64,000 nt of DNA from Candidatus Zixiibacteriota bacterium. GTDB lineage: Bacteria; Zixibacteria; MSB-5A5; GN15; FEB-12. Location: the NCBI GenBank assembly GCA_040752815.1, contig JBFMGC010000001.1:16449-80448 (forward strand). Direction: 5' to 3'. The notes under the pieces were generated by a model. It was not told where the DNA came from and ran no database searches. It worked only from the letters and a program-made list of their open reading frames with translations. This document shows positions 5,898-57,088 of the stretch, in pieces (position 1 is the first letter of the stretch; each line of letters begins with the position of its first letter). The position numbers were made by a program, and so were the translations under genes.

Positions 5898-6974
5898 CTA
5901 CAAACAATCCGGCAATCCCAGTGTCGCCCCAGTAATAAACAGATAGTCAATCAGGTAGGTCACATCCCCGATAGACAGATCCGTTAACTGCGGGTTCTGG
6001 CCGCCGGACTGGTTGACATCGGCCTCGGCCACGCACGGGATAAACTCCGGCTGCTGCGATATGAATAACACGTCGATGATGGTCGTTATGTCGCCGATAG
6101 TCGGTTCGTCGCCGCCCTCACCGTTAGCGTCACCCACCCGCCCCATACAACAGTCGGAGTCGCAGGCGTCGCCGACCCCATCGGAGTCCTCATCCTCCTG
6201 CCCCGGGTTCGATACAAAGGGACAGTTGTCCAAGGTGCACGTTGTGGCCGCATAACCCGGATTGCCGAAACCGTCCTGGTCGGTGTCCGTACATTCATCG
6301 CAATCGTCGCCGACAGCGTCATTATCCGCGTCAGCCTGACTTGGATTGAACAGGCCTGGACAGTTGTCCCAGGTGTCGCCGACCCCGTCGCCGTCACCGT
6401 CAGGACCAGCATTAACACACTCCTGGCCGCGCCAGTTGACACTGTACTCGCCGGCATCGGGATCGACAAACGACGCACGCACAAAATCGGCTGAGTCGAT
6501 ACAGAACGATTCGCCACCGGCCCACCCCGAAATGGTGAAATAGTAGGTGACAATCAACTTGGGCGAGGACGACGCCACGAGCGCTCCCGACGGAAGCCCG
6601 CCACCGGTGCACTGAAACAGGCGGCGAGTATTGGTGCTATCACGATTCCCCTTGAAGTCAACAATCCGAAACAACGAGAAGGCTGCCGAGGCAGCCGGAG
6701 AGAACACGGCGGAGTCAAAGCTGAAGCGATCGCTGTCCCACGAAAGACCTAACGACGCACCCACTACCGGCTGGGCATCATTGAAAAAATACACGGCGAC
6801 TGCTGCGACCGAGTCCACTCCGAGGCGAGGCTGAGATATCGCTGCGAAAATCGAGTCCGGTGCGCCGAGATCGCGCGGGTCCTGGGCCGACGCTCCTTGT
6901 GCCACTGACAAACAAATGACTGTGACCAGCATGGCGGAGAAAATCAGGGTAAATCGAGAAGTCGGATGCTGCAT
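5898..6974 (-). CDS. Secreted protein: cohesin-like domain, thrombospondin type-3 Ca-binding repeats, dockerin-like C-terminal module
   Basis: Signal peptide [34 protein letters not shown]3 repeats [35 protein letters not shown] and [25 protein letters not shown]-terminal module [60 protein letters not shown] at 5901-6152. Confidence 0.8.
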
Positions 6975-8850: not shown

Positions 8851-8865
8851 TCCGACTCCCATATG

Positions 8866-8906
8866 CCCCAAAAAACAACGGGGACAGCGCGTAAACGCTG
8901 TCCCCG
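8866..8906 (-). terminator. Intrinsic terminator after the cohesin-like/T9SS gene
   Basis: An 11-bp stem CGGGGACAGCG/CGCTGTCCCCG (8879-8889 / 8896-8906) with a 6-nt loop. On the minus strand it is followed by TTGTTTTTTGGGG. Confidence 0.8.
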
Positions 8907-8934: not shown

Positions 8935-9792
8935 TTATTTAACGAGCATCATTTTGCGCGTCGCTGTACCGCCATCGTGGCTTAGGCGGTAGAAGTAGAT
9001 GCCCGATGGCAGCTTACCGCCGTCGAATTCGTACGTGTAGACGCCCGGATCACGGTGCCCTTCAAAAAGCAGTGCAACTTCCTGTCCCAAAATGTTGAAG
9101 ACCTGGAGCCGTACGCTTCCCGCCCGAGGCAATGCGTAGCGAATAATAGTAGTCGGGTTGAACGGGTTGGGGTAGTTCTGATCGAGAGCGAACTCAGTCG
9201 GCAGCAGGCCGTTGCCGGTCTCATCGTCAACCCCGGTGGGCAGCAGCACTTCAACATAGCCCGGAGTGAAATCCGGCAGGTAGACTCCGGTGCCGGTGTT
9301 ATCGGCAACATCGATTCGGGTGTAAATGTGGATATTGCTGCCCAGTAAGCTGTCGGCGTAAATCGAATCGATCGCCACCCGCTGAGGAGTGGCCGACGTT
9401 GCCACCCTGAAATGCAGCACCGCCACGATGCCGTTGGTGAAGCTGAGCGACGGCAGAGGGTAGACCATGTCGTTGGGTAGCACGGTTATTCGCGCGGTAC
9501 GCGCCGTGTTGTCGATCACATAATACCCGGAGAAGTCGGGACTCCAGATCGTACCCCCCAGAGATACGGAATCAAGCGTGAGCGCGGAACTGGAGAACTT
9601 GAGCGGCAGGGTGATCGCGGAAATGGCGATGTCGTTGTTTCGCAGCCAGACATTAACGGCCACGGACTCGGTCGGCTTGGCCCGGGCCGAGTCGACTGTG
9701 ACCACTCCGTTATACGGCAGTTGGGCGACCACAGCGTCCGTGATCCCGAGAGTTAGGGCGAAGACGATTATTGCCGTTAGCGTTCTTCTCAT
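8935..9792 (-). CDS. Secreted cohesin-like domain protein with T9SS (Por) C-terminal sorting domain
   Basis: C-terminus NYPNPFNPTTIIRYALPRAGSVRLQVFNILGQEVALLFEG..GIYFYRLSHDGGTATRKMMLVK is a classic T9SS CTD. N-terminal domain VVTVDSARAKPTESVAVNVWLRNNDIAISAITLPLKFSSSALTLDSVSLGG..NGIVAVLHFRV shows a cohesin-like pattern. Start ATG 9792 (MRRTLTAIIVFALTL) follows GGAAAGAG. Confidence 0.8.
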   Translation of the reverse strand: MRRTLTAIIVFALTLGITDAVVAQLPYNGVVTVDSARAKPTESVAVNVWLRNNDIAISAITLPLKFSSSALTLDSVSLGGTIWSPDFSGYYVIDNTARTARITVLPNDMVYPLPSLSFTNGIVAVLHFRVATSATPQRVAIDSIYADSLLGSNIHIYTRIDVADNTGTGVYLPDFTPGYVEVLLPTGVDDETGNGLLPTEFALDQNYPNPFNPTTIIRYALPRAGSVRLQVFNILGQEVALLFEGHRDPGVYTYEFDGGKLPSGIYFYRLSHDGGTATRKMMLVK

Positions 9793-10076
9793 ACTCTTTC
9801 CTTTCGCAACGCAGCAGGGCTTGCTTTGATGCCACCGACCGACCATCCACAACTCGGCCTGACTGGCTTTGCGCAAAGCCCGTGCCGCGCCCGACCACGC
9901 AGCGAGACCGGTCCGACGCTTCGTCAGAGGCCACGACCAACCCGCCTAACCGCCTGAAACAAGGCGGCTTAGACCGAGGCGCGAAACTCTGTACGAGCCT
10001 TGATCAACGCGCTTTAATATACGGCCTTGCGACAGAAATAGGCAGAGATTTTCTCACCTGCCTGGCCGCTGCGAGA

Positions 10077-11549
10077 CTATTCCGCCCGAACATTCACGAA
10101 AAGAGTCTGTCCAAAGCGCCAGACGAGAAGGACGACTTCTGACGGCCCGCCCGCTTCGAGCGCAGTCATCGCCGCTGCGAAATCACCCACTGATGCGACT
10201 TCCTGATCGTTGACGCGCTGGATGACATCGCCAGGCGACAGCCCGGATACGTCGGCCCGCCCGCCGAGCTGCAGCTTGGTCACGACTACGCCGGTGAGAG
10301 ATTGCTGCTCGACATTGTAACCGACATAGTCGGAAAACACGAGGTCGCGCACTGTCAGTTCGAACGGTTTGTATTCGAAATCAGCGGCATCGGCGGCCGC
10401 CAGCGGGGCCGCAGCAAGCACCGCGAGAACGGTAAGCGTATCGAGTCGGTCGTTGTCCGGGCGAATGACGGTTAATTCAACCGGCGCGCCGACTCCTATG
10501 TTGGCGACCTCTCTCTGAAACACCGAAAGCTCTTCCTCACGATCGACCTCGACCCGTCGCCCGTTGACAGCGTAGATTATGTCGCCGACACCCAGCCCGC
10601 AGGCAGCCGCTGGGGAGCCAGGTACAACTTCGTTGACTATGATCCCACCCGGTGAGCCGAGCCGGAGGAAATCAGCAATGTCCTGGGTGAGCGCCTGCAT
10701 GGTGATGCCGAGCCACGAGCGGGCGGCCTGCCCGCGACGGGGTGGATTGGCAATCAGAGGTCTTAATCGTTCAGCAGTGACCACTCCAAACAGGGGAATC
10801 TCCATGCGGTCGAAAGATTCCATCCGGCCGGGATCGGAGGAGCGTCCCGAGGGGTCGTCCAGACGCCCCAGCAGTCCCACCGGGTTGAGACGTTCATCGA
10901 AGAGCACTGATCCAAGTTCGAGCGGGCTGAAACCGACAATGAGCGGGAATACCTCCGGGTCGGTGATTACCGATGAGATCATGCCTATGTCCGCCGCGAT
11001 CGGAGGATCGACGAACTCCGGCAACAACGCATGAGTGGCAACCCAACTTCCGACCGGAAACCGGCTCGCAGGCGAAAACTTGACAGGCGAGAACCTGCGG
11101 CCTGCGCCCGTAATCTGCGCGAAGGCCAACCCGGTGTAGGAATCAACTCCTACGTATTCGGCCATGTATTCCTTCTTATCCAGTGTCGTCACCCTGATGC
11201 GCCGGGGCGTGGAGCGGAAGACCATTCCGCCTGTCGGCACAAACGGGTTGGCCTCACTTAGAAAGCCGCCGTCGAAGACAATCAGACCATCCTCGCGCAC
11301 AATCGTACCGAGCAGCCGCTCCTCCTGTTCGTTAACTTCGGTCCCAAACGAATACTCCACCTGGATGGTCAGGATGACCGTGTACGGAACTATGCGCTGC
11401 TGCAAACGGGCAAAATCAAACGACTGAGCGTACGACTCGGGGGCCAACAGCAATCCCACGCCACACGCAAGGGCAACGGCGCTGGTAACCATCGATACTG
11501 GACTTGATGACACATTACTCATTGGTTTGCTCCGCGCCGGCGAGTTCAA
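10077..11549 (-). CDS. HtrA-like periplasmic protein with two PDZ domains and a degenerate (probably inactive) protease domain
   Basis: PDZ 1: SWLGITMQALTQDIADFLRLGSPGGIIVNEVVPGSPAA; PDZ 2: TGVVVTKLQLGGRADVSGLSPGDVIQRVND. The trypsin-fold region lacks the His (TIVREDGLIVFDGGFL), the Asp (TGLAFAQI) and the GNSGGP motif (ELGSVLFDERL). The start is uncertain: TTG 11549, ATG 11522 or ATG 11492. Confidence 0.7.
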   Translation of the reverse strand: MNSPARSKPMSNVSSSPVSMVTSAVALACGVGLLLAPESYAQSFDFARLQQRIVPYTVILTIQVEYSFGTEVNEQEERLLGTIVREDGLIVFDGGFLSEANPFVPTGGMVFRSTPRRIRVTTLDKKEYMAEYVGVDSYTGLAFAQITGAGRRFSPVKFSPASRFPVGSWVATHALLPEFVDPPIAADIGMISSVITDPEVFPLIVGFSPLELGSVLFDERLNPVGLLGRLDDPSGRSSDPGRMESFDRMEIPLFGVVTAERLRPLIANPPRRGQAARSWLGITMQALTQDIADFLRLGSPGGIIVNEVVPGSPAAACGLGVGDIIYAVNGRRVEVDREEELSVFQREVANIGVGAPVELTVIRPDNDRLDTLTVLAVLAAAPLAAADAADFEYKPFELTVRDLVFSDYVGYNVEQQSLTGVVVTKLQLGGRADVSGLSPGDVIQRVNDQEVASVGDFAAAMTALEAGGPSEVVLLVWRFGQTLFVNVRAE

Positions 11550-12888
11550 GGTTAAGCACGACTATCCGCGTAGCCCCGCTGCGTTTGACAGTCAGCATGA
11601 CTTTGCGGTCGCCGGCCTCGATAAGCTGATTGTATCGAATTACCAGTGAGTCAAGATTCTCAACCGGCTCACGATTGATCGCCTGCAGGACGTCACCCTG
11701 GTTCAGTCCGCCCAGGTCCGCCGGGCCGACCCTCCTGACACCGGTGACAAACACACCGGCCGAATCCCGCAATTGGTGGCTGATCTGCATCTGACGCGTA
11801 ATATCTCGAACCGTAAAGCCCCACTTGGCACACTCGAAATCCTCGCCCTGCAATTGGCCGAGCGGACGGGTCAGCACCGTGACCTGGCGCTCCTGCACGC
11901 CGCGGAGGATCTTGAGCGTGATCGCGGTGCCGGGCGCATGGCTGGCTATGCTGTTGTAGAAAGCGGGAAGTTCCTCAACGAAACGGGCCGAGACCGGTCG
12001 GCCGTCGATCTCGAGTATGATATCGCCGGCCATCAGCGACGCCTCGACAGCGGGCGAACCCGGATCTATCGAGGCAATCAGAACGCCGCGATTGTGGTCG
12101 GTGCCGAAGTAATCTTCCAGCTCCTGGAGGGCCTGAGCGGTAACACCAATCCAGCTCCGCGTGACATGGCCGTCATTCAGAATGGCTTTGGTCACTTCCT
12201 TCACGACGTTTACGGGAATGGCAAAGCCGAGGTTGTTGGCCATGAAAGTAGCGCGCGAGTTGATGCCGATCACACGACCCGATAGATCGACCAGCGGGCC
12301 GCCGGAGTTGCCGAAGTTGATGGCGGCGTCGGTCTGAATCCATAGATTGTAGCGGCCGGTTTTCTCGCCCGACGGAAGCCGGTATTCGCCTGAGAAGTAG
12401 CGGTCCTTGGTAGAGATCACGCCCGCCGAAACCGACCGGGCCAGTGAGAGTGGCGAGCCCATCGCAAGCACTTGCTGGCCAGCCTGGACCGAATCGGAAT
12501 TGCCGAGTACGGCAGCCTCGATCTTTCCCTTGTAATCGTTCAGACGGAGCTTAAGAACGGCTATATCGGTGGCCGGATCGCCCCCGACATAATCGGCCGA
12601 GAGCTGCTCCCGGTTGCTGAGCGTGCAGATAATCCGCTTGGCCTTGCCGGCCACGTGATAGTTCGTAACGACATAACCGTCGGGGTGAAATATCACCCCC
12701 GATCCCACCACCGCCTGTTTCTTCAATTGGCCGGTGCGGTAGTCTTCGACCACCGGCTGGATGTGCACCAGCGCGGGCATGACCCGGTCACGGGCCAGAT
12801 ATACCTGCTCCTGATAGGTGGCTGCAACACCACTCGGTGCGGCAAACAACATTATGCCCACCGGCACAAGCGATAAAACTCGTTTCAT
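11515..12888 (-). CDS. htrA: Periplasmic serine endoprotease HtrA/DegP/DegQ family (protease plus 2 PDZ)
   Basis: Catalytic triad motifs VVTNYHVA, DIAVLKL and GNSGGPLVD, plus two PDZ domains. ATG 12888 follows AAGGAG; N-terminus MKRVLSLVPVGIMLFAAPSGVAA. Confidence 0.92.
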   Translation of the reverse strand: MKRVLSLVPVGIMLFAAPSGVAATYQEQVYLARDRVMPALVHIQPVVEDYRTGQLKKQAVVGSGVIFHPDGYVVTNYHVAGKAKRIICTLSNREQLSADYVGGDPATDIAVLKLRLNDYKGKIEAAVLGNSDSVQAGQQVLAMGSPLSLARSVSAGVISTKDRYFSGEYRLPSGEKTGRYNLWIQTDAAINFGNSGGPLVDLSGRVIGINSRATFMANNLGFAIPVNVVKEVTKAILNDGHVTRSWIGVTAQALQELEDYFGTDHNRGVLIASIDPGSPAVEASLMAGDIILEIDGRPVSARFVEELPAFYNSIASHAPGTAITLKILRGVQERQVTVLTRPLGQLQGEDFECAKWGFTVRDITRQMQISHQLRDSAGVFVTGVRRVGPADLGGLNQGDVLQAINREPVENLDSLVIRYNQLIEAGDRKVMLTVKRSGATRIVVLNLELAGAEQTNE

Positions 12889-13111
12889 CTGACTCCTTGT
12901 CTGGTGGCACGCCCAACACAGTCCTAGAACCACCCAAGCGTAGCCGACCGATCCACGCAGGTCAACAACAGATGTCTCCGGTGTCGGTTCCCGTAGGCTT
13001 TATACACGGATTTGAGCGAAATTGGATAAGCCGGCGCCGCGAGTTCCGCCCGAGCGGACAGGTGAAGCGTTCCCCCCCGAGACACGCACATTTGAGGGGC
13101 CAACCGCGGTA

Positions 13112-18775: not shown

Positions 18776-19381
18776 CTACCTTGACGCCTCGACGTATAAG
18801 TCATTGACCCTGTTCCAGTTAATGACACAGAAGAAGGCTTCGATATACTCCGGCCGCCGGTTCTGATATTTCAGATAGTAGGCGTGCTCCCAGACATCCA
18901 GGCCCACGATCGGCTTCTTGCCCAGGGACAAGGGCGAATCCTGATTGGCCGTGGCTACGATCTCGAATTCTCCCTTAGTCAAGGTCAGCCAGACCCAGCC
19001 GCTGCCAAACAGATTTGCCGCCGCGGTTGAAAATTGGCTTTTGAACTGATCAAAACCGCCGAAATGCTTTTTGATAGCGTCGGCAGCCGGGCCACCGAAA
19101 GTCGTCCCCTTTGCCAGAAGCGGCCAAAAAAAGTCATGGTTGGCCGTACCGCCGCCGTGGTTGCGGACCGCGGTGCGAATAGACTCCGGAATTGCAGCCA
19201 GATTGCTGATCAACTCCTCCGCTGACTTTGCCTCCAGCTCAGGATGGCCGGCGAGGGCGGCGTCGAGCTTGGTGACGTAGGTTTGATGATGCTTCGTGTG
19301 GTGGATTTCCATGGTTTGAGCGTCGATATACGGCTCCAGCGCGTCGTATGCGTACGGGAGTTTAACGAGAGTGTGTGCCAT
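18776..19381 (-). CDS. Fe/Mn superoxide dismutase
   Basis: [29 protein letters not shown] and [26 protein letters not shown] lies 9 nt upstream of the ATG. Confidence 0.95.
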
Positions 19382-20722: not shown

Positions 20723-23011
20723 TCACAAGCACGCCGGCAGGCCGAGCTCGGGGCCGGTAATAAACAGGTAGTCGATCAAGATGGTGACATCACCGATCGA
20801 GACATCCAGCGGCGACGGCAACGCCCCGCCGGATTGATTGACGTCGGCCTCGGCCAGACACGGGGGCTGGGTCCCGGAGATGAACAGCATATCGATGAGG
20901 AGAGTGACGTCGCCGATTGTCGGCTCGTCTCCGCCCTCGCCGTTGGCATCCCCCACACGACCCGAGCAGCACGATACGTAAACACTGCCGTCGCTCGTCT
21001 CGGGGGTATAGTCGCCTGCGTAGGTAGTCAGCCAGAGACTCTGGCCCGCATAGCTGGTAAAGACAATCGGACTGCTGCCCGACACCGCCGAGCCGAGATC
21101 GGTGAAAAACAGCGACACAATCGAACCGCTTCCGGCCGCAAGCGGCGGCTCATTGCCTGCCCCGAGAAACAGGGTCGCCGACTTGGTGGCGGGCACGTAG
21201 CTGACGATAGATTTTATGTCGAAAAACTCGGTCCGGTGGCCCACAATGGAAATGGAATCGAATCTGAGATTGAACGGGCCGGCCCAACTGAAGGGAATTC
21301 TCACCTCAGTCAGCGCCAGGTAATTGGTGGCGCTTAGGTCGATTCTTGCCCGGTTATTGACAAGGGGGGCATCACTCATGCGCAGCGTGTCGGCGAACGC
21401 CGAGATCATGCCGTCGAATGTGCGACGGTACGTTCGCTCGGGTGTGGTTACGCTGACCGTCACGCTAAAATAGCCCGGCATGTCGTACATATGCTGGGGA
21501 TGTTGCTCCGTCGACGTAGCGCCGTCGCCGAACTCCCAGAACCAGCCGATGCCATTTAGAGAATAATCTGTGAACTGAACCGCCAGCGGGATCGGCCCGA
21601 AAGTGCTGTCGGCGGCTATGTCAACAAACGGCGGATTCGTGTTCCCATAGACCAAATTGACCGTGTCCCAGTTGGCTACCGCCAGGTCATTGTGGAACGA
21701 GTACCGGTAGTAGCCGACGGCGCTGATTACCGGCGCCGTCGCGAGCGACAGCCAGCCTGACACAAGGTCGTAACAGTAATCTGCTTCGGACAAAAGCGCG
21801 CCGTCTGTTAGCACCGAGTCTATTTCATACAAAGGGCTATGTTCGGTGTAGAACAGCTTCGTAGAACCGTCGACCACAAAGGTATCGGCAAGCGTAACCA
21901 CCCCAAGCCCGTCTATATCCACCCAGGCCAGCTCCTCGGCCACCATCGAAAGAGCTGACGACCACACCGGCGCCGTAGTAAGGGTCGTACCCAGGTTCTC
22001 ATACACCCACACCTTTTGAAACCAGCGCCCGGCGGCGAGGTCATCGTCGCCGTCATTGTCATAATCGTATAGCGCTAGCGCCGAGCCGTAACCGCCGGTG
22101 GAAGACTGCCAGCCGTGCGTGGTGCTCAGGCTCCCGGCACCGTCGTTGAAATACACGCGAAAACGTCCCTGTCCGCCGAGTTGATTGTTGTAAGCTACCA
22201 CCAGGTCGAGCCAGTCATCGCCGTTTATGTCACCGAACATCAGCGTATTGCCGGGTTCGACCGTGGCCGCTTGCCAGGTGGGCGTGGTGGAGATAGCCCC
22301 CGCGTTGTTGTGGAACACGGCGGTAGCTGCGGCGTCAAACGTGAAAGCCAGGTCGAGATCGCCGTCCCGGTCAACATCACCCCAGGCAACATCGAGCGCC
22401 GCCCCCGACGCCGATGACAGCCAGTAGGGACTTCCTCCGAATGATCCCTCATCGTTTAGATAGATGCGCTGCTGCTGGTAATCCTGATTGTACCCCTCGC
22501 CACAGGCAAAAGCGATATCAAGATCGCCGTCGCCGTCAACATCGCCCAGCGCGCAGGAAAATGAGAAGAGCTCATCCGGTGTGAACCAGTCCGGCACGGT
22601 ATGCGGAAAGCCGGTGTTGTTAAGGTACAGATTGCTGCGGTTGGGATCGCCGAAGCCGCTGCCAAGATAGTTGGACACGAAGAGATCCGGAAAGCCGTTG
22701 TCGTCGACATCCCCTACCGCGCAATGCCCGGAGTACTCGAGATCGGCTGAAAACCATGATGCCGAAGCCGGGAAGCTCGAGGTACCGAAGATATATATGG
22801 TGTTGGCCGCCTGGACGATGTCGTTCCCGTTGGAATAGAACACGTCGATAATTCCATCGCGATTGCAGTCCCGCCAGATCATGCCGGTTGAGTAGACGTC
22901 TTGCTCGGCGGAAGACCATATCGGCGTCGTACCGAGTGGGACTTGCGCCGACGTGGAACGGACAACGGGCAGAATCGCGGCGAGGATGATCAAACGGGCG
23001 GCGGAATTCAT
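20723..23011 (-). CDS. Secreted FG-GAP/VCBS-repeat protein with PKD, cohesin-like and dockerin-like C-terminal modules
   Basis: FG-GAP repeats: DCNRDGIIDVF, GDVDDNGFPDLFV, GDVDGDGDLDIAF, GDVDRDGDLDLAF, GDINGDDWLDLVV, YDYDNDGDDDLAA. PKD: WEFGDGATSTEQHPQHMYDMPGYFSVTVSV. Cohesin-like: VRIPFSWAGPFNLRFDSISI. Dockerin-like module at 20726-20971. Confidence 0.85.
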   Translation of the reverse strand: MNSAARLIILAAILPVVRSTSAQVPLGTTPIWSSAEQDVYSTGMIWRDCNRDGIIDVFYSNGNDIVQAANTIYIFGTSSFPASASWFSADLEYSGHCAVGDVDDNGFPDLFVSNYLGSGFGDPNRSNLYLNNTGFPHTVPDWFTPDELFSFSCALGDVDGDGDLDIAFACGEGYNQDYQQQRIYLNDEGSFGGSPYWLSSASGAALDVAWGDVDRDGDLDLAFTFDAAATAVFHNNAGAISTTPTWQAATVEPGNTLMFGDINGDDWLDLVVAYNNQLGGQGRFRVYFNDGAGSLSTTHGWQSSTGGYGSALALYDYDNDGDDDLAAGRWFQKVWVYENLGTTLTTAPVWSSALSMVAEELAWVDIDGLGVVTLADTFVVDGSTKLFYTEHSPLYEIDSVLTDGALLSEADYCYDLVSGWLSLATAPVISAVGYYRYSFHNDLAVANWDTVNLVYGNTNPPFVDIAADSTFGPIPLAVQFTDYSLNGIGWFWEFGDGATSTEQHPQHMYDMPGYFSVTVSVTTPERTYRRTFDGMISAFADTLRMSDAPLVNNRARIDLSATNYLALTEVRIPFSWAGPFNLRFDSISIVGHRTEFFDIKSIVSYVPATKSATLFLGAGNEPPLAAGSGSIVSLFFTDLGSAVSGSSPIVFTSYAGQSLWLTTYAGDYTPETSDGSVYVSCCSGRVGDANGEGGDEPTIGDVTLLIDMLFISGTQPPCLAEADVNQSGGALPSPLDVSIGDVTILIDYLFITGPELGLPACL

Positions 23012-23128
23012 AGTACCTTCACGGATTGGGCGAGTATCACAGATAAAGAAAGCCCGCTATTAGGTTACCGCAAGGACGTTTAAATGTCTCGCCTGTGCAT
23101 TCGCGGCTGATCGGAGCCGCGGCCCAAC

Positions 23129-25528
23129 TCAGGGACAGGTTGGTAATATCAGCGACGGTCCGGTGACAAACAAATAGTCGATCAGTATGGTCGCATCCAC
23201 AATTGAGACATCCTCCGACACCGGGTCGGCCCCGCCCGACTGGTTGACATCAGCCTCAGTCAGGCACGCGACCGGTTCCTGGGTGATGAACAGATAGTCC
23301 ACCAGGCGGGTCACATCGGCAATTGTCGGCACGTCCCCTCCGTCGCCGTCAACATCGCCCACAATTCCGATACAGCAGCCAAGACGAATCGAGCCTGATG
23401 TTGTCGCTGTCACGTACTCATAGGTGTCGGCGCGAAAACTGGGGGCGTAACTGCCATACGTGACAAATGTAACCGGATTGGTCGCGGTACCGAACTGAAG
23501 AGGTACCCTGAACCACAGACTGACCACCGGACCGCTCCCCGGCGCCAGGGCCGGCTCCTGTTCCGTGTTGGGTGTTCTGAGCGAGATGGTCGCCCGTTTC
23601 TGGGCCAGGGCAATGCTGATGATACTCTGTGTGGGGAAATACGACGTTCTAAGGCCGGCGGTGGAAAACGAGTCAAAAGACATTCCCAGTGGACCGTCCC
23701 ACGAGAACGGGACTTCAATCTGGTTTACCGGCAGAAAATTGCGGGCGTAGACATCCATGCGCACGCGTGAGCCGGCCTGGACCTGTATGTTTGGCAGGGC
23801 CAGTGAGTCAGAGTGGGCCAAAACCATACCGGGAATTGTACGAGTGAACTGACCCTCCTCGGTGCCAATGGTAAGCGAAACGTTGTATATCCCGGGATCA
23901 GCATACTCATGGGCAGGGGTGGAATCGTCGGACAAGGCCCCATCGCCAAAGTCCCAGGTCAGCGCCGAAGCCGGCAGCAAAGATGAATTCGCGAAAGTGA
24001 CTGTAAGCGGTGCCTGTCCGCGCGTGGTATCCGCCGAGAACGCCACCGGCCAGGTGAGGGCCTTGCCCAGGTCGATGGTCCCCCAGCCGTAGGAGTTATC
24101 GGGACTGGCCGCCCGCGTTGCGGTGGCTTTGAGCGCCTCGCGCACCTGGCGGGCGGTAAGTTCAGGGCGGGCTTCGATTAAAAGGCAAGCCGCCCCGGCA
24201 ATCAGAGGTGCCGACAGTGACGTGCCGCTGGCGTAGGCGTAACTCTGATCCCCGGATGCCGACGCGCCGTAAGTATCCACACCCAGCGCGCACACCTCGG
24301 GTTTGATACGGCCGTCGAAAGTCGGCCCGCGCGACGAAAACGACGCTACAAAGCCACTGGTGTTCACCGCACCGGCGGCCAGAATGTCAAACGCGTCAGC
24401 GGGCGCCGAAATCGTGCCAGGCAAATACCCGGCGTTGCCGGCAGAAACCACCAGCACGATACCGAGCGCGTCGCAGGTGTTGGCCGCGAGCGTAATCACC
24501 GCCGTGCGACCGTCCATGTCGGAGTAAGTGTACCAGTCGGAATAACCGAGCGAAGTGGAGATTACATCGGTCCCGATCGAGTCCGCGAACTCCAATGCGG
24601 CGACCCAGTTGTCTTCCTCCACCTGAGTCTCATCGGTAATATCCTCCGTCTTGCACAGAATGAAATCAGCGCCGTAGGCGGGGCCAATCAGCCTCCCTGG
24701 CGCGTAGCCGCCCGCCACCGACCAGGTCAGCGTGCCGTGATTCCACTGATTGGGCGAATCGCCCGGTTCCATGGAAGTGTTCGGGTCGTTCATCACGAAA
24801 TCGTATTCCGCGAGCACTCGCCCCGCAGCGACAGCGCCCGCTACCGCCGCGTGGGTCTTGCGATAACCGGTATCGGTCATTGTGAGCGCCACGCCCCGGC
24901 CCGTCAAACCCTGCGCATGAGCGGTCGCTACGTTTATCTGGTATATCTGCGCCTGGGACTGGCCATAGTCCAGTGCGTCCCCGGACATCGTGCCGCCTTG
25001 CGGGCCGGGGCGCTCATCCTCCCCAACCTCGAAAGGCCGTCGGAAGACAGCCACCGGTCGTACCTCGGCCACCATGGGAAGGGCCGCAAGGTCGGCCAGT
25101 CGGTCTATGGAAATATCAAAAGATGCGGCGTTGAGCCAACGGGACACACGGCGCACCGTGCCGCCAAGTGCCAAGACCTGACTTACATAGCTTGCCGAGA
25201 GGGGAAGATCGGCGAACTGCACGTCGGCCGCGCCCAAACGCATGCGACGACTCAAAGCGCGATCGGTTAAACGTACTCTCTTGGCCGCCGACAAAAACTC
25301 CGCGTGCGTCCAAACCCCCTTATCCGTAAAGAAAACCCAGACACGCGCAGTATCTTCATCGCGCCCCGCGAGGTACGAGAGGACTCTCTCGGGCACAAAC
25401 CCAGAGGCTTTTTGGCGGACAAATACTGTTTCTCCAGCTACGCCAGTCACGATTCCCCCGAGAATTACCGAGCAGGAGGCTAATATTGAGGTTACGGCGG
25501 TTAAGTGATGTCGACGCGGTAAGTACAT
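23129..25528 (-). CDS. Secreted subtilisin-family (S8) serine protease with PKD, cohesin-like and dockerin-like C-terminal modules
   Basis: S8 triad motifs MTDTGY (Asp), NHGTLTWSVAGG (His) and SGTSLSAPLIAGAAC (Ser). PKD: WDFGDGALSDDSTPAHEYADPGIYNVSLTI. Cohesin-like: IEVPFSWDGPLGMSFDSFST. Dockerin-like module at 23132-23377. Start ATG 25528 (MYLPRRHH..). Confidence 0.9.
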   Translation of the reverse strand: MYLPRRHHLTAVTSILASCSVILGGIVTGVAGETVFVRQKASGFVPERVLSYLAGRDEDTARVWVFFTDKGVWTHAEFLSAAKRVRLTDRALSRRMRLGAADVQFADLPLSASYVSQVLALGGTVRRVSRWLNAASFDISIDRLADLAALPMVAEVRPVAVFRRPFEVGEDERPGPQGGTMSGDALDYGQSQAQIYQINVATAHAQGLTGRGVALTMTDTGYRKTHAAVAGAVAAGRVLAEYDFVMNDPNTSMEPGDSPNQWNHGTLTWSVAGGYAPGRLIGPAYGADFILCKTEDITDETQVEEDNWVAALEFADSIGTDVISTSLGYSDWYTYSDMDGRTAVITLAANTCDALGIVLVVSAGNAGYLPGTISAPADAFDILAAGAVNTSGFVASFSSRGPTFDGRIKPEVCALGVDTYGASASGDQSYAYASGTSLSAPLIAGAACLLIEARPELTARQVREALKATATRAASPDNSYGWGTIDLGKALTWPVAFSADTTRGQAPLTVTFANSSLLPASALTWDFGDGALSDDSTPAHEYADPGIYNVSLTIGTEEGQFTRTIPGMVLAHSDSLALPNIQVQAGSRVRMDVYARNFLPVNQIEVPFSWDGPLGMSFDSFSTAGLRTSYFPTQSIISIALAQKRATISLRTPNTEQEPALAPGSGPVVSLWFRVPLQFGTATNPVTFVTYGSYAPSFRADTYEYVTATTSGSIRLGCCIGIVGDVDGDGGDVPTIADVTRLVDYLFITQEPVACLTEADVNQSGGADPVSEDVSIVDATILIDYLFVTGPSLILPTCP

Positions 25529-25622
25529 TTGCTTTCGATGCTCGGGAGTCCTATGTCTGCCAGCCCGCACTCGCCTACTTCAAGAAAACCGAGCCCGCTC
25601 AATTGTCAAGAAATATTCCTAA

Positions 25623-25750: not shown

Positions 25751-26173
25751 ATGACAGCCCGGCGCAACACCTTACAGAGGAAAATAATCCTCGAGGAGGT
25801 CCGGGGATCGCTCGAGCATCCGACCGCAGCCGAAGTGCACGCCGAGGTACGCAAGAGGATACCGCATATCAGCCTGGGTACTGTTTATCGGAACCTCGAT
25901 CTCCTGAGCCAGGAAGGGCTGATACGAAAACTCGAGCCGAATGGCCGCGAGGCGAGATTCGACGGCATACTGACACCCCACTATCATCTGCGATGCCGCG
26001 TTTGCGGCCGGATTGAAGATGTACTTGATCCGGTAACCGTTCGGGTGGATGGTGGCATTGATGAACCATCGGGCTGGCAGGTATTGATACCGCAAGTTGA
26101 ATTCGCAGGGCTCTGTCCCGACTGTGGGACGGGTTCCCAGGTTTCACCCAGGGACAACGCGACCAGAGAGTGA
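25751..26173 (+). CDS. perR: Fur-family transcriptional regulator, PerR-like by context
   Basis: HPTAAEVHAEVRKRIPHISLGTVYRNLDLLSQEGLI (winged helix), HYHLRCRVCG and CPDCG (structural Zn CxxC pairs). It heads an oxidative-stress gene cluster. Confidence 0.85.
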   Translation: MTARRNTLQRKIILEEVRGSLEHPTAAEVHAEVRKRIPHISLGTVYRNLDLLSQEGLIRKLEPNGREARFDGILTPHYHLRCRVCGRIEDVLDPVTVRVDGGIDEPSGWQVLIPQVEFAGLCPDCGTGSQVSPRDNATRE

Positions 26174-26363
26174 CATGTTACGGAGTGTAGCAGGACAGGA
26201 GATCCTCGGTATTGACAAGGAGTAGATTATCCGACATGCTGTGGTGAACGAGCTGCCGCCGGGCCGCCATGTGGGCAGGTGGCCAAGTATCTTACTCGCC
26301 ACAGCCAAGGGGCGCTCGATCATGACAAGAACCGGGTAAGGCAAAAAAGTTCCGGAGGAGCTA

Positions 26364-26867
26364 ATGACTCTCGAAAAAGCGATCAAGACAGCAATCGACT
26401 ATGAAATCAAGGTCCGCGACTCTTATCTGGCTTCGGTAAAGAAGATCCGCGACGAAACCGGGCGCCGGGTTTTCGAGGTGCTGGGGAAGGAAGAGCAGGG
26501 CCATATTGACTACCTGCAAGCAAAGCTTGCCGAATGGCAAAGCACGGGTCGGATCAAACCGGGAAAGCTTAACACGGTTGTGCCGGCGCGGAAGATAATC
26601 GACGCCGGAGTCAGAAAGCTGAGCGCCCACATATCGGCCAACGAGTACGATACGGAACTTGAGATGCTGCGTAAGGCGCTGGCTCTTGAGCAGGAAACGT
26701 CCGGTTTCTATCGCCGCATGGTTAGCCAGCTCAAGCAGGACGGCGAGCTGTTTGGCAGATTCCTCGAAATCGAGGAAGGTCACCAGGCGATCGTCCAGGC
26801 TGAGATAGACTATCTGACTCGCAGTGGTACGTTCTTCGACTTTCAGGAGTTCAATCTCGAAGACTGA
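26364..26867 (+). CDS. Rubrerythrin-family diiron four-helix-bundle protein lacking a rubredoxin domain (erythrin-like)
   Basis: Diiron ligands E (DYEIKV), ExxH (EEQGH), E (ALEQET), ExxH (EEGH). GGAGGAG lies 3 nt before the ATG. Confidence 0.8.
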   Translation: MTLEKAIKTAIDYEIKVRDSYLASVKKIRDETGRRVFEVLGKEEQGHIDYLQAKLAEWQSTGRIKPGKLNTVVPARKIIDAGVRKLSAHISANEYDTELEMLRKALALEQETSGFYRRMVSQLKQDGELFGRFLEIEEGHQAIVQAEIDYLTRSGTFFDFQEFNLED

Positions 26868-26883
26868 AGGCAGCCGGAATCGT

Positions 26884-27399
26884 ATGTTTGACGCAAAACA
26901 GGAAACCCTGGCCAAGGCGCTGCTCGACGCAATTCGCGCCGAGAAATACGGGCACAGTTTCTACCTGATGGCCGCAAACAGCACCCAGGATTCCCGAGGC
27001 AAGGAGGTGTTCGAGACTCTCGCGGCCGAGGAACTCGATCACGCCCGCTTCCTCCAGGCGCACTACGAATCGGTGCTCAAAACCGGCAAGCCGAGCCGTA
27101 GTGTTTCGCTGGGAGACCGAGCCGAACTGTCCGAGATATCGCCGATATTTTCGGATCAGCTGCGGGCACGCATCCAGGACGCGGCCTTTGAGATGACCTC
27201 GCTGTCTATCGGCATACAGCTCGAGAAGGACTCCATGGCGTATTACCGTGAGCAGGCCGAGAAGTCTCCCGACACGGAGATGAAGCAGATCTTCGAGTTC
27301 TTGTCGGACTGGGAAGCGGGGCATTATCGCGCGCTGCTCAGGCAGCACGACATGCTCAAAGAGGACTATTGGGCAGCCGGTGGCTTTGCGCCCTTCTGA
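26884..27399 (+). CDS. Rubrerythrin-family diiron protein (erythrin-like), paralogue 2
   Basis: E (RAEKYGHSFY), ExxH (EELDH), E (QLEKDSMAYY), ExxH (WEAGH). Start ATG 26884 (MFDAKQ). Confidence 0.8.
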   Translation: MFDAKQETLAKALLDAIRAEKYGHSFYLMAANSTQDSRGKEVFETLAAEELDHARFLQAHYESVLKTGKPSRSVSLGDRAELSEISPIFSDQLRARIQDAAFEMTSLSIGIQLEKDSMAYYREQAEKSPDTEMKQIFEFLSDWEAGHYRALLRQHDMLKEDYWAAGGFAPF

Positions 27400-27474
27400 G
27401 TGACAGGGCAGTTTGAAGATGAGGACTTTCGGATTTTCAATAGACGTACCGAATACCGGAAAGGAGCCATGAAG

Positions 27475-27852
27475 ATGGCTACCCAGAGGCTACAGATTTA
27501 TAGATGCAAGGTCTGTGGAAACATGGTGGATGTGGTTCACGCAGCGGGCGGCACCCTGGTCTGCTGCGGACAGAACATGTGGCTGTTGAAGGAAGGTGAG
27601 ACCGACGCCGCCACGGAGAAACATGTCCCCAAGGTCACGAAAATCGACGGGGGCTTCCGCGTGGCGGTCGGCGAGATCACCCATCCGATGGAAGAAAAGC
27701 ACTACATCGAGTGGATCGAGCTTGTCGCCGACGGCAAGGCGTACCGCGAGTTTTTGAAAGCGGGACAGCCGCCCGAAGCGACCTTTCACGTGGCGGCCGA
27801 TAACGTTTCCGCCCGTGAATTCTGCAACCTGCATGGACTATGGAAAGGATAA
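27475..27852 (+). CDS. dfx: Desulfoferrodoxin (2Fe superoxide reductase)
   Basis: Desulforedoxin-like N-terminus YRCKVCGNMVDVVHAAGGTLVCCGQNM. SOR centre II residues EKHVP, HPMEEKHYIEWI, CNLHGLW. AAGGAG lies 8 nt before ATG 27475. Confidence 0.92.
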   Translation: MATQRLQIYRCKVCGNMVDVVHAAGGTLVCCGQNMWLLKEGETDAATEKHVPKVTKIDGGFRVAVGEITHPMEEKHYIEWIELVADGKAYREFLKAGQPPEATFHVAADNVSAREFCNLHGLWKG

Positions 27853-55252: not shown

Positions 55253-57088
55253 ATGCATAAACGCCTGTTTTGGTTATCTGCTGTTATCGCTGTTTTCGCT
55301 CTTGCCAATCCCGGCAACGCCGCCCAGAGCGAGCAGTACTGGCAACTCGTGTTTCGCTACACGAGCTCTGATCTACAGCTAGTCAAGGCCGACCCGATCG
55401 CTCAAATAGAAAAAGAAATCAGAACTCCCGGGCTGGAATCAGCGGCAATTCGAGTAGGCTACCGTTGCGAGTGGCTGGATAACGCAGGTCGACCCGTGTT
55501 CGTTTCGTCCACGGAGATGCCAGTCGGCATTCGCGTACCCCTGGGCGATTCCCTGCCCTGCCAATGGCTGGTACCTGAAGAGGGAATCATAGTCGTGCGG
55601 ACAACCGGACCTGATCCGAAAGCGAATTCGGAGAGCATCAGGCTGACGCAGACGGGCATAGTCAACCGCGCACGACCGGCGATAAGTCTCCCCGCGCCGT
55701 TTCTCCAAACCGAGGTCTCGGTGAGTGTTGCGTCGGCGACGCGAACCGCCGCCCTGGCGCCGGGGCCGGTGGGAGTTCAGAAGATCAGAGACACCGGCCC
55801 GGACGCCAATCGTCTGGTCATGGTTATCATGGGCGACGGTTACACGGCGGCTGATCTGAGCGGGGGCGCGTTTTCGGGCGCGGCCGCATCGCTGGGAGCG
55901 GCTTTCGAGTCCAAGCCGCCATGGGATGTTTTGTTCGCCGCGACTAATCTGTACCGTATCGATATCGAGAGCAACGAGCAGGGCGCCGACCACGAGGTGT
56001 TCGGTGTTCTCAAAGATACCTATTTGAATTCATCGTTCTGGATCAACGGCATCGAGCGCCTGCTGTCGCTGACCGGGGACGGCTACTTCAAGGCGATTCA
56101 AGCATCTGACAATTTGGTCGGGCCGGGTGTCTGGGATCTTATCCTGGTACTGGTGAACTCGACCAAGTACGGCGGTTCCGGCGGTGGGATTGCGGTTTCA
56201 TCGGTGCACTCGGCCGCGGCAGAGATCGTCATACATGAAGTTGGCCACACTTTTGCCAACCTGGCTGACGAATACGAAACCGCATATCCGGGGTATCCGC
56301 CGGGCGACAGCGAGCCGAATGTTGATTTCGATTACGACGGTCCCGGCCTCAAGTGGCTGATCTGGGTCGAACCGGGCACGCCGCTGCCGACACCTGAGTC
56401 GTCGCCATATCTGACCACGGTGGGTACTTTTGAAGGTGCCCGTTACTTGTCGAGCGGCATCTATCGACCGTGGTATAACTGCGAGATGCGTTCGCTTAAT
56501 CGGCCGTTCTGCCCGATCTGCCAGGAGGCTCACGTGCTTGATTTCACCGGCATGGTTTCCCTGACCGACCTGGTCGCACCGCCCGTCGGTACGAATCAGA
56601 ATATCGACGAAGGCGGAACGCTGTTCGCCGTTACTCCGATTCCGTTGTCAGATCTCGAATACGAGTGGTTTCTTGACGGGGTCCCGATACCGGCAGGCGT
56701 GGGGCCGTCGCTGTCACTCACTCCCGACATGATGGCCGAGCATAATCAGACCCTGCAGCTTAATATCGTGCTGAACACGCCCCTGGTCCGAAAGACGACT
56801 GTCACGCGAAGTTACCTCTGGCCGGTAACGACAGAGGTCAGTCTTTGTTGCACTGGCGTAGTCGGCGACGCCAATTACGACGGCGCATACGATCCAACCA
56901 TCGGCGACATTACGGCCATCATAGATCATCTCTTCGTGAGCGGCACCCCTCTGGCCTGTTACGAGGAAGCCGATGTCAACCAGTCGGGAGGCACGTCGCC
57001 AGGTTCGACCGATATAACGATTGGAGACATTACCATTCTGATCGACAATCTCTTCATCACCGGGGTCACTTTGCCCGCTTGTTTCTGA
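55253..57088 (+). CDS. Secreted M64-like (IgA-peptidase family) zinc metallopeptidase with dockerin-like C-terminal module
   Basis: VLVNSTKYGGSGGGIAVSS..AAEIVIHEVGHTFANLADEY (HExxH in M64 context). Signal peptide present. Module [60 protein letters not shown] at 56846-57085. Confidence 0.8.
   Translation: MHKRLFWLSAVIAVFALANPGNAAQSEQYWQLVFRYTSSDLQLVKADPIAQIEKEIRTPGLESAAIRVGYRCEWLDNAGRPVFVSSTEMPVGIRVPLGDSLPCQWLVPEEGIIVVRTTGPDPKANSESIRLTQTGIVNRARPAISLPAPFLQTEVSVSVASATRTAALAPGPVGVQKIRDTGPDANRLVMVIMGDGYTAADLSGGAFSGAAASLGAAFESKPPWDVLFAATNLYRIDIESNEQGADHEVFGVLKDTYLNSSFWINGIERLLSLTGDGYFKAIQASDNLVGPGVWDLILVLVNSTKYGGSGGGIAVSSVHSAAAEIVIHEVGHTFANLADEYETAYPGYPPGDSEPNVDFDYDGPGLKWLIWVEPGTPLPTPESSPYLTTVGTFEGARYLSSGIYRPWYNCEMRSLNRPFCPICQEAHVLDFTGMVSLTDLVAPPVGTNQNIDEGGTLFAVTPIPLSDLEYEWFLDGVPIPAGVGPSLSLTPDMMAEHNQTLQLNIVLNTPLVRKTTVTRSYLWPVTTEVSLCCTGVVGDANYDGAYDPTIGDITAIIDHLFVSGTPLACYEEADVNQSGGTSPGSTDITIGDITILIDNLFITGVTLPACF

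Follow-up and report, generated by a model that had tools for sequence, protein, structure and literature searches.

A C-terminal cassette shared by neighbouring Zixibacteria genes points to a cellulosome-like, mainly peptidase-bearing cohesin–dockerin system

Background

Cohesin–dockerin systems are the textbook form of extracellular enzyme assembly, described for the most part in Firmicutes that degrade cellulose. Several described systems bear on the genes considered here. In the amylosome of Ruminococcus bromii, Amy4 – a GH13 enzyme with a cohesin and a dockerin – has a cohesin that binds its own dockerin and the dockerins of other enzymes, which predicts multimers (PMC4611034). R. bromii also has Sca2, a separate surface-anchored single-cohesin protein that holds dockerins, and the Archaeoglobus fulgidus system has been cited among the cohesin–dockerin pairs that presumably multimerise (PMC4611034). 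For Candidatus Stygibacter (Cloacimonadota), a system has been inferred whose peptidases and glycosidases carry dockerins and are held by a cohesin protein with a conserved C-terminal surface-attachment domain, and a scaffoldin with a T9SS CTD has been inferred in the Cloacimonadota (PMC8542988). In the ScaA dockerin of R. flavefaciens and in others, residues that precede the first calcium loop touch the C-terminus, a 'clasp' that stabilises the dockerin and supports cohesin binding (PMC3821032).

The window – the whole stretch of 64,000 nucleotides analysed here, from a Zixibacteria MAG – seems to encode a set of parts, cellulosome-like and not yet described, with which protein-degrading enzymes could be assembled extracellularly. 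Two neighbouring genes in it end in a common cassette. From sequence comparisons and structural models we lean, on balance, towards the view that this cassette is part of a Zixibacteria cohesin–dockerin assembly system, cellulosome-like and mainly peptidase-bearing, in which dockerins would attach the enzymes and cassettes would extend the chains. It would be a peptidase-loaded version of such systems in an uncultured phylum common in sediment and soil, with the receptor module on the enzymes and a T9SS-tagged anchor.

Two neighbouring genes end in a common cassette

ORF A, an FG-GAP protein, and ORF B, an S8 protease, lie on the minus strand at the coordinates that a sequence-only reading had given them. 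Their parts are as follows.

20723..23011, minus strand: ORF A, 762 aa; signal peptide, six FG-GAP repeats, PKD, cohesin and dockerin
21407..21646, minus strand: PKD of ORF A, about aa 456-535 (Pfam match aa 465-523)
20972..21406, minus strand: cohesin ('mid' domain) of ORF A, about aa 536-680 (AlphaFold, Foldseek and hhalign)
20726..20971, minus strand: dockerin of ORF A, about aa 681-762; four Cys, two helix-loop repeats, end ...PACL
23129..25528, minus strand: ORF B, 799 aa; signal sequence, S8 subtilase, PKD, cohesin and dockerin
23819..24058, minus strand: PKD of ORF B, about aa 491-570 (PKD_4, E=1.2e-11, aa 500-562)
23381..23818, minus strand: cohesin of ORF B, about aa 571-716 (family profile match, E=7e-55)
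23132..23380, minus strand: dockerin of ORF B, about aa 717-799; end ...PTCP

The sequence-only reading had proposed that both genes end in the same three modules, and had named a pairwise alignment of the two tails as the way to tell this from a purely compositional likeness. BLASTP aligns A 448-761 with B 482-798 as a single collinear match (44% identity, 59% positives, 7 gaps, E=5e-66). The likeness far exceeds compositional similarity, and the common tail, a collinear cassette of 319 aa, is a PKD–cohesin–dockerin cassette. The passengers in front of it are unrelated, as had been proposed: the N-terminal parts of A and B have no significant BLASTP similarity, Pfam FG-GAP_3 is found in six stretches of ORF A (E=2.5e-31), and Pfam Peptidase_S8 covers aa 210-483 of ORF B (E=1e-37), where the D/H/S triad of a subtilisin can be read in MTDTGY, NHGTLT and GTSLSAP.

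Signal peptides of the window proteins were judged by eye. The N-terminus of ORF A, MNSAARLIILAAILPVVRSTSAQ, is signal-peptide-like, and the signal sequence of ORF B has a possible lipobox, LASC, by reading of the sequence. ORF B has the stated length if it starts at the ATG of position 25528; a GTG further upstream, at 25570, is an alternative start. An exact-sequence look-up of ORF A gave no match, and an ortholog 65% identical to it is found in the Zixibacteria MAG MFD05942 (L001).

Both PKD domains, which had been called by eye, pass the Pfam gathering threshold (PF18911 / PF00801). That of ORF A scores 38.7 bits with PKD_4 (cutoff 27) and 33.8 bits with PKD (cutoff 23.5), and that of ORF B scores 44.9 bits with PKD_4 (cutoff 27); the two are 42% identical.

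Tandem cassette genes occur, and the B-then-A gene order is conserved. A recent tandem duplication was considered as the origin of A and B and rejected, each cassette being closer to its own ortholog in other genomes than A and B are to each other. The neighbouring genes (SOD, GT4, Fur, rubrerythrin and desulfoferrodoxin) were likewise rejected as members of the system.

The middle domain and a T9SS-tagged cohesin

Within the window, tblastn finds the middle domain in A and B only. It escapes standard domain models: the isolated middle domains of A and B match no Pfam family at E<=10 and do not reach the threshold of PF00963, Cohesin is absent from the 25 Pfam families listed for 74 relatives, and NCBIfam gives nothing significant. 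PDB sequences searched with the middle-plus-dockerin sequence (phmmer) and with the profile of the middle domain (A2) gave chance matches only. The assignment comes from structure and from profile comparison. An AlphaFold model of ORF A aa 534-762, which holds the middle domain and the dockerin, has a pLDDT of 95.5 and a pTM of 0.82, and its middle domain is all-beta. The best 50 PDB matches listed by Foldseek for this model are cohesins without exception (best E 1.4e-9); the middle domain superposes on them with a TM to target of 0.7-0.78 and an rmsd of about 2.7-3 Å. As modelled, it has what defines a cohesin fold – a beta jelly-roll with nine strands and about 140-150 residues that can be superposed on solved cohesins. 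The by-eye call of a cohesin-like domain thus holds, and the fold unrelated to cohesin that would have told against it did not appear.

A second line of evidence comes from another ORF in the window.

8935..9792, minus strand: candidate anchor, 285 aa; signal peptide, cohesin (nt ~9193-9720) and T9SS type A CTD (nt ~8938-9174)

This length assumes the Met at 9792 as the start; the ORF as called mechanically reaches on to a TTG at 9876. The sequence-only reading does not mention this ORF. It scores 28.3 bits with Pfam Cohesin PF00963 (cutoff 24.1), and its C-terminus scores 36 bits with Por_Secre_tail PF18962 (cutoff 27) and 44.3 bits with TIGR04183 (cutoff 23). With a sorting domain above curated thresholds and a signal peptide judged by eye, it qualifies as T9SS type A cargo, and an identical protein is named T9SS type A sorting domain-containing protein by NCBI. 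Against PDB sequences its cohesin gave only weak adenovirus-fibre matches (E ~0.007), treated as chance. Orthologs fall into 39 clusters, nearly all of 280-285 aa, and a second type of anchor is present in a related locus (L037). This conserved cohesin–T9SS protein is a candidate surface anchor by its sequence. The chemistry of T9SS attachment is known from Bacteroidota, not from Zixibacteria.

The candidate anchor matches the profile of the middle domain at E=8e-9, and a comparison of the two families, the anchor family being the one whose members carry PF00963, gives an hhalign match of 98.0% (E=1.6e-13, 137 columns). By these profiles the middle domain is homologous to Pfam-positive cohesins. 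The cohesins of A and B, being only 35% identical, need not share the specificity of the anchor cohesin.

The same divergence – 35% between A and B and about 31% on average over the family – would suit a different function, in which the cohesin-fold domain binds a substrate protein, a glycan or a component of the cell envelope, so that PKD–cohesin targets the peptidases and the dockerin alone attaches them. PKD domains often mediate binding, 73 of 74 full-length members of the family have a PKD along with the cohesin, and the cassette cohesins lie under the Pfam Cohesin threshold. Such a partner is nevertheless quite unlikely. No CBMs or other beta-sandwiches appear among the best 50 structural matches listed, the homology to the anchor cohesin is clear, and dozens of dockerins are encoded in the same genomes as the domain.

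The four-cysteine module is a dockerin in fold

The C-terminal module with four cysteines occurs four times in the window (20726-20983, 23132-23389 and 5901-6152 on the minus strand, 56846-57085 on the plus strand), with 55-75% identity by tblastn. The two copies outside the cassettes belong to the following ORFs.

5898..6974, minus strand: ORF C, 358 aa; signal peptide, second-type cohesin-like domain (nt ~6405-6884), TSP_3 repeats (~6165-6404, Pfam) and dockerin (5901-6155)
55253..57088, plus strand: ORF D, 611 aa; signal peptide, Peptidase_M64 (Pfam E=3e-38) and dockerin (nt ~56843-57085)

ORF C had also been read as pairing a cohesin-like domain with the module, and this is supported, if distantly. 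Its N-terminal family matches the middle-domain profile with an hhalign value of 93.5% (E=2.3e-7), a relationship seen only by profile–profile comparison, as BLASTP finds no similarity between the two domains. The dockerin of ORF C is 75% identical to that of ORF A (tblastn), and the database matches of ORF C include 12 near-full-length orthologs and 2 more distant relatives. ORF D, the M64 peptidase, matches the dockerin profile and has no cohesin by profile search, in agreement with the earlier view that it has the module alone.

In an AlphaFold model of the module (pLDDT 92.7), residues 23-35 and 63-75 form the main helices. Foldseek ranks dockerins from solved complexes as the 18 best PDB matches of this model, as the by-eye call of a dockerin-like module had anticipated, with a TM to target of up to 0.79, an rmsd of about 2 Å and a probability of up to 0.99; the E values are only 0.07-2, which is to be expected of a domain this small. 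The model has the duplicated loop-helix F-hand of about 70 residues that defines the dockerin fold, and the helices are internally similar, with 9-11 of 15 residues in A, B and D.

At the level of sequence models, all window dockerins lie under the gathering threshold of the type I-like Pfam model Dockerin_1 (PF00404), the best score being that of the ORF B module with 17.3 bits (cutoff 22.9), and the isolated module has nothing significant in Pfam or NCBIfam. The dockerin profile (A1) found no dockerin among PDB sequences, only chance matches. Canonical 12-residue calcium loops (D-x-[DN]-x-[DN]...D) are absent from the window modules, whose loops, as read from the sequence, have 14 and 19 residues (DVNQSGGALPSPLDVSIGD). 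Canonical 12-residue loops do occur in members further out in the family, for example DVDGSGVINILD, and Dockerin_1 matches 17 of 74 family relatives at E<=0.01 (best E=6e-12). The relatives of the four-cysteine module grade into canonical Pfam dockerins.

The dockerin alignment (A1) contains invariant Cys. With the positions taken as the first Cys of CC, the second Cys, the linker Cys and the penultimate Cys, 121 cassettes have the patterns CCCC (80), -C-C (35), ---C (4), -CCC (1) and none (1). Cys are present at the clasp positions in 116-120 of the 121, and their co-occurrence is tight. This co-occurrence fits two disulfides, one of which would clasp both ends of the dockerin. Such a bond would tie the N-terminus of the dockerin to the penultimate residue and so be a covalent counterpart of the known clasp; a second, to the linker between the repeats, is implied in about two thirds of members.

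The module is strictly C-terminal, and about 110 of 120 matches end in Cys-X. Dozens of copies per genome sit behind unrelated passengers, a T9SS CTD takes the same position in one relative (P0174), and strict dockerin motifs have a very narrow distribution, in 3 of 185,579 species genomes. A tag for secretion or sorting, read by export or attachment machinery in the way of a T9SS CTD and not by a cohesin, might be expected to look like this. As the main role of the module it is very improbable, given that the fold is that of a dockerin, that relatives grade into canonical dockerins, that cohesins are encoded alongside, one with a T9SS tag of its own, and that no known sorting-domain model matches the module.

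Read as dockerins, the modules of A and B have much in common. They are 66% identical between these paralogs and 68-70% between orthologs, while cohesin identity drops from about 52% between orthologs to 35% between A and B. Equal conservation of the dockerin in paralogs and orthologs suggests that the dockerins of A and B may share one receptor.

Spread of the modules in relatives

An exhaustive search found 623 representatives of the cassette family at 50% identity; a word-indexed search for the middle-domain family gave 2 further matches and badly underestimates the family. All named members are Zixibacteria, and the passengers of the 74 full-length members are mostly peptidases. Two Zixibacteria MAGs have about 37 and about 20 dockerin loci. 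The public names of these proteins are limited to 'PKD domain-containing', 'C10 family peptidase' and 'T9SS sorting domain'.

ORFs A and B, as well as 11 ORFs of related loci, carry cohesin and dockerin on one polypeptide. The two modules adjoin with essentially no linker – the last cohesin strand ends about 2 residues before CC – and the dockerin follows the cohesin directly in about 135 of 152 family members. The confidence of the model is high across this junction, and the confident relative placement of both domains (pTM 0.82) would also fit a fixed intramolecular contact. The cohesin-fold domain could then be packed permanently on its own dockerin in the manner of an X-module, so as to stabilise or modulate it, with nothing bound in trans and the cassette proteins acting as dockerin-bearing cargo. 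A correlation between cohesin and dockerin distances is weak but non-random (r=0.29, a value reached by 0 of 500 permutations); module distance correlations in general (r = 0.13-0.29 at about 31% mean identity) are too weak to separate cis from trans.

Such a structural role in cis is unlikely on the distribution of the two modules. The same type of dockerin occurs without a cohesin in 71 of 84 dockerin ORFs, and in one ortholog of ORF B (L019) the S8 domain is joined straight to the dockerin, without the PKD–cohesin part; both observations weaken the X-module idea that had been raised from the sequence. Conversely, the cohesin family occurs without a dockerin in the candidate anchor and in P0174, which has the architecture M43–PKD–cohesin–T9SS CTD. 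Taken together, the cohesin-free dockerin ORFs, the L019 ortholog and the dockerin-free P0174 indicate that the cohesin is not just a helper of the dockerin. The upstream domain of the cassette also has a cohesin fold, not that of the Ig-like X-module which stands upstream in X-module–dockerin dyads of type II/III.

Proposed assembly

In the assembly system that we favour, all these proteins would be exported through their signal peptides, and the T9SS-sorted cohesin would be fixed to the outer surface. Dockerin-bearing enzymes – the M64 peptidase, the S8 protease, the FG-GAP protein and others – would plug into the anchored cohesin in a calcium-dependent manner. Proteins with the full cassette would use up one cohesin and offer another, and could so act as chain extenders, with the PKD as a spacer that sets the enzyme apart from the assembly unit; proteins with a dockerin only would be chain ends. 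Strings of enzymes, cell-bound or free, would be built in this way with no need of a large scaffoldin, in the manner of R. bromii Amy4.

A fuller version of this proposal is put forward tentatively and is itself doubtful: that Zixibacteria build scaffoldin-less 'proteolysomes' throughout the phylum, in which the T9SS-attached 285-aa cohesin seeds head-to-tail chains of peptidases made of rigid units, each a cohesin with a disulfide-locked dockerin, and dockerin-only proteins serve as caps. The modules would have been missed so far because standard domain models do not detect them. If true, such an assembly differs from cellulosomes, which are built on a large scaffoldin, and it would offer a compact cohesin–dockerin pair, its dockerin probably disulfide-stabilised, for the designer-scaffold toolbox. 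If the modules bind as proposed, Zixibacteria would have a possible way to concentrate protein-degrading enzymes on particles. There is also a gap in annotation – with new profile models, hundreds of protein families would be annotated afresh.

Comparison with known systems

The non-cellulosomal cohesin of Archaeoglobus fulgidus (2xdh) ranks 12th among the fold matches, with a TM to target of 0.75. It is, like the middle domain, a cohesin outside cellulose degradation; that system is archaeal and has neither a PKD nor a T9SS anchor. The Zixibacteria dockerin has Cys at both positions of the known clasp. Known clasps are non-covalent (stacking, hydrophobic or electrostatic), whereas the clasp of the Zixibacteria dockerin would be a disulfide, implied by the co-occurrence of the Cys.

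Adaptor scaffoldins, found in clostridial and ruminococcal cellulosomes (for example A. cellulolyticus ScaA and R. flavefaciens ScaA/ScaB), also combine a cohesin or cohesins with a dockerin, and bridge enzymes to anchoring scaffoldins; their cohesins and dockerins are among the Foldseek fold matches of the cassette. They are non-catalytic, with several cohesins and with cohesin and dockerin types of differing specificity, whereas the cassette proteins have a single cohesin on a catalytic or FG-GAP protein without carbohydrate-active modules.

The scaffoldin of the Ca. Stygibacter system is 3,755 aa long and holds many cohesins and CBMs; InterProScan identified the domains of that system. In Zixibacteria the candidate anchor has 285 aa and a single cohesin, additional cohesins are found on the enzymes, and most of the modules lie under the thresholds of standard domain models.

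Amy4, like the cassette proteins, combines a cohesin with a dockerin at the C-terminus of an enzyme. It is a single protein, an amylase, from a Gram-positive Firmicute with sortase anchoring. The Zixibacteria MAG, by comparison, has a T9SS-tagged anchor cohesin and mainly peptidases as cargo, with predicted binding; its cassette differs in that the cohesin abuts the dockerin without a linker, that a PKD precedes the cohesin, and that the arrangement recurs in 623 representatives.

Common tail of two adjacent ORFs

The two neighboring ORFs have the coordinates and passengers described for them in the sequence-only reading, and the triad motifs of the S8 domain are legible in the ORF B translation.

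20723–23011, minus strand: ORF A, 762 aa; six FG-GAP repeats, PKD, middle domain, C-terminal module
23129–25528, minus strand: ORF B, 799 aa counted from the ATG; S8 subtilase, PKD, middle domain, C-terminal module

BLASTP found no similarity between the N-terminal parts of A and B, and placed the last 319 residues of both in a single alignment (44% identity, E=5e-66), which bears out the proposed collinear cassette and shows that the similarity is not compositional. The PKD domain exceeds the Pfam threshold in both proteins. Within the window, tblastn finds the middle domain in A and B only (35% identity), and the C-terminal module of ~85 aa at four sites (55–75% identity): A, B, ORF 5898–6974 and the M64 peptidase ORF 55253–57088.

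Middle domain

No Pfam or PDB sequence match of its own was found for the middle domain. The AlphaFold model of the ORF A middle domain and C-terminal module (55-sequence alignment) has a pLDDT of 95.5, and the 50 Foldseek PDB matches listed are cohesins only – types I, II and III and the non-cellulosomal A. fulgidus cohesin (best E 1.4e-9; highest TM to target 0.78). The profile of the family matches that of a family of Pfam-positive cohesins (hhalign 98%, E=1.6e-13). On this modeling and profile homology the middle domain is a cohesin, as had been proposed; no unrelated fold was assigned. The cohesin-like domain noted in ORF 5898–6974 is its N-terminal domain, a remoter relative (93.5%, E=2.3e-7).

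An exhaustive profile search gave 623 representatives of the family at E≤1e-3, of which 372 also passed E≤1e-10. The domain stops 67–96 residues short of the C-terminus, with the dockerin next, in about 135 of 152 relatives. Two relatives, P0134 and P0167, have two copies of the cassette-type cohesin and P0264 (1317 aa) has three matches; these could be small multi-cohesin scaffoldins. In 55 of 121 cassette cohesins the DS.ST.G.RT motif has a Cys after its conserved Gly (column 66 of the cassette alignment; ST.GCRT), with no obvious conserved partner; ORF A has His there and ORF B has Leu.

C-terminal module

The window modules reach at best 17.3 bits against Pfam Dockerin_1, below the cutoff of 22.9, and a 24-sequence module profile found no dockerins among PDB sequences. 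AlphaFold models the module with confidence (pLDDT 92.7), and the best 18 PDB matches to this model are without exception dockerins taken from solved cohesin–dockerin complexes (rmsd ~2 Å, TM to target reaching 0.79). Dockerin_1 is matched by 17 of 74 relatives at E≤0.01 (best E=6e-12), and remoter relatives shade gradually into canonical dockerin repeats. The earlier dockerin-like call is thus upheld by fold and by relatives, and by the model the module is a dockerin. As read from the sequence, its loops are 14 and 19 residues long, versus the normal 12, and it has four invariant Cys.

A database search matched 339 proteins at E≤1e-3. In almost all of the 120 matches listed, similarity is confined to the C-terminal module and the passengers are varied; in about 106–110 of them, the module begins with "CC" 80–88 residues before the end and terminates in Cys-X. 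Four Cys positions (first and second of the CC, linker, penultimate) were scored in 121 cassettes: 80 have all four (CCCC), 35 have -C-C, 4 have ---C, one has -CCC and one has none. These patterns fit two predicted disulfides, from the first Cys of the CC to the linker Cys and from the second to the C-terminal Cys. Known dockerins are stabilized by a non-covalent "clasp" (PMC3821032), of which the second disulfide would be the covalent counterpart. One Zixibacteria dockerin subfamily (alignment A1; e.g. P0002, P0085, P0088) has an additional Cys pair, in GNCDG of the linker and PTCDD of the second loop; because the two co-occur, a third disulfide is suggested.

Distribution and gene order

Strict dockerin motifs were found in 3 of 185,579 species-representative genomes: ~37 loci in one Zixibacteria MAG, ~20 in another and 3 in an "Ignavibacteriales" bin. 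The contigs of that bin (CAZHDS01; L030, L043, L057) are 1.6–3.7 kb and carry Zixibacteria-type dockerins and one cassette; mis-binning is probably likelier than a real occurrence in Ignavibacteriales. All named cassette-family members belong to candidate division Zixibacteria, and none of their annotations names a cohesin or dockerin. Among 74 full-length members, 73 have the PKD domain and peptidase passengers predominate (M43 20, C1 12, reprolysin-like 12, S8 9, C10 5).

The B-then-A order is kept in the Zixibacteria MAG MFD05942, with the cassette genes in tandem. Tandem arrays of two or three cassette genes occur in related Zixibacteria MAGs (L001 3–5244; L046; L055), and dockerin genes are clustered too, e.g. 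in MFD05942 contig_177 (210–275 kb) and contig_197 (926–1039 kb).

The cassette genes of the window are flanked by oxidative-stress genes:

18776–19381, minus strand: Fe/Mn superoxide dismutase, on one side
25751–27852, plus strand: Fur-family regulator, rubrerythrin and desulfoferrodoxin, on the other side

This set suits an anaerobe or microaerophile. These neighbors, and a GT4 also found there, are outside the cohesin–dockerin system. ORF 26364–26867 has no Pfam match at 1e-5.

Separable modules

The sequence-only reading had offered, as an alternative to assembly, a cassette cohesin that stabilizes the dockerin as an X-module; a purely intramolecular role of this type is the main rival. 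It is favored by the lack of a linker between cohesin and dockerin and by the high pTM (0.82) of the ORF A model; against it, 71 of 84 dockerin ORFs have no cohesin, and cohesins without a dockerin exist. An S8 orthologue of B in Zixiibacteriota AUK044 (L019 1402–3246, plus strand; 54% identity across the catalytic part) has its dockerin directly after the catalytic domain, and the PKD–cohesin pair has therefore been gained or lost between orthologues. In P0174, an M43 peptidase–PKD–cohesin protein, the dockerin is replaced by a T9SS or FlgD_ig-type sorting domain; the tail position therefore takes either attachment device. Dockerins are equally conserved between paralogues A and B (66%) and between orthologues (68–70%), while cohesin identity drops from about 52% between orthologues to 35% between A and B. 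Because only the dockerin holds its identity between paralogues, a common constraint on all dockerins, such as a shared receptor, would fit.

A candidate anchor

When all six reading frames were scanned with the profiles built for the middle domain and the dockerin, one further ORF emerged, which the sequence-only reading had not noticed:

8935–9876 (likely start 9792), minus strand: anchor ORF, 285 aa; signal peptide, cohesin, T9SS type A sorting domain

The anchor matches Pfam Cohesin at 28.3 bits (cutoff 24.1), PF18962 at 36 bits and TIGR04183 at 44.3 bits, the last two for the sorting domain. Its orthologues form a tight group of 39 clusters, 50–73% identical and nearly all 280–285 aa. The identical sequence is present in an NCBI Candidatus Zixiibacteriota MAG, in a record named for the T9SS domain only. 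In a related genome (L037), a sister protein couples the ORF 5898-type cohesin-like domain to a T9SS sorting tail; the tail was called visually and from its similarity to that of the anchor. At another locus (L011 5001–6257, plus strand), a signal peptide and ORF 5898-type domain precede apparent Ig-like repeats (by eye) and the protein runs past the locus end; this may be a larger surface protein.

Between ORF 5898–6974 and the anchor is a Ser/Thr protein kinase (576 aa, 7141–8871, minus strand), in which the kinase domain is matched twice and a hydrophobic segment lies at the C-terminal end; no evidence ties it to the cohesin–dockerin system. Just beyond the anchor, on the far side, are two adjoining PDZ protein genes. 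The second (11515–12933, minus strand) is HtrA/DegP-like, with Trypsin_2 plus PDZ. The first (10077–11549, minus strand) has PDZ domains only, with no protease domain at E≤1e-5; it may therefore be a paralogue that has decayed or lost its activity.

Proposed system and comparison with known systems

The most likely reading of these domain identities is a cohesin–dockerin system that would display and assemble secreted peptidases. Once exported and attached, the T9SS-sorted cohesin of the anchor would be a surface receptor, and dockerins would be the plugs, in putative binding that may be specific and calcium-dependent. Cassette proteins would plug in and present a fresh socket, extending the chain; dockerin-only proteins would end it.

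Cohesins, dockerins and proteins with both are already known. In the literature searched, four features appear undescribed: a cohesin–dockerin system in Zixibacteria, a fixed PKD–cohesin–dockerin tail across hundreds of peptidase families, a probable disulfide-clasped dockerin, and a small anchor of one cohesin and a T9SS sorting domain. Among tested systems the nearest precedent is R. bromii Amy4, in which the cohesin binds the protein's own dockerin (PMC4611034). The closest predicted precedent is a Cloacimonadota scaffoldin with a predicted C-terminal surface-attachment domain (PMC8542988).
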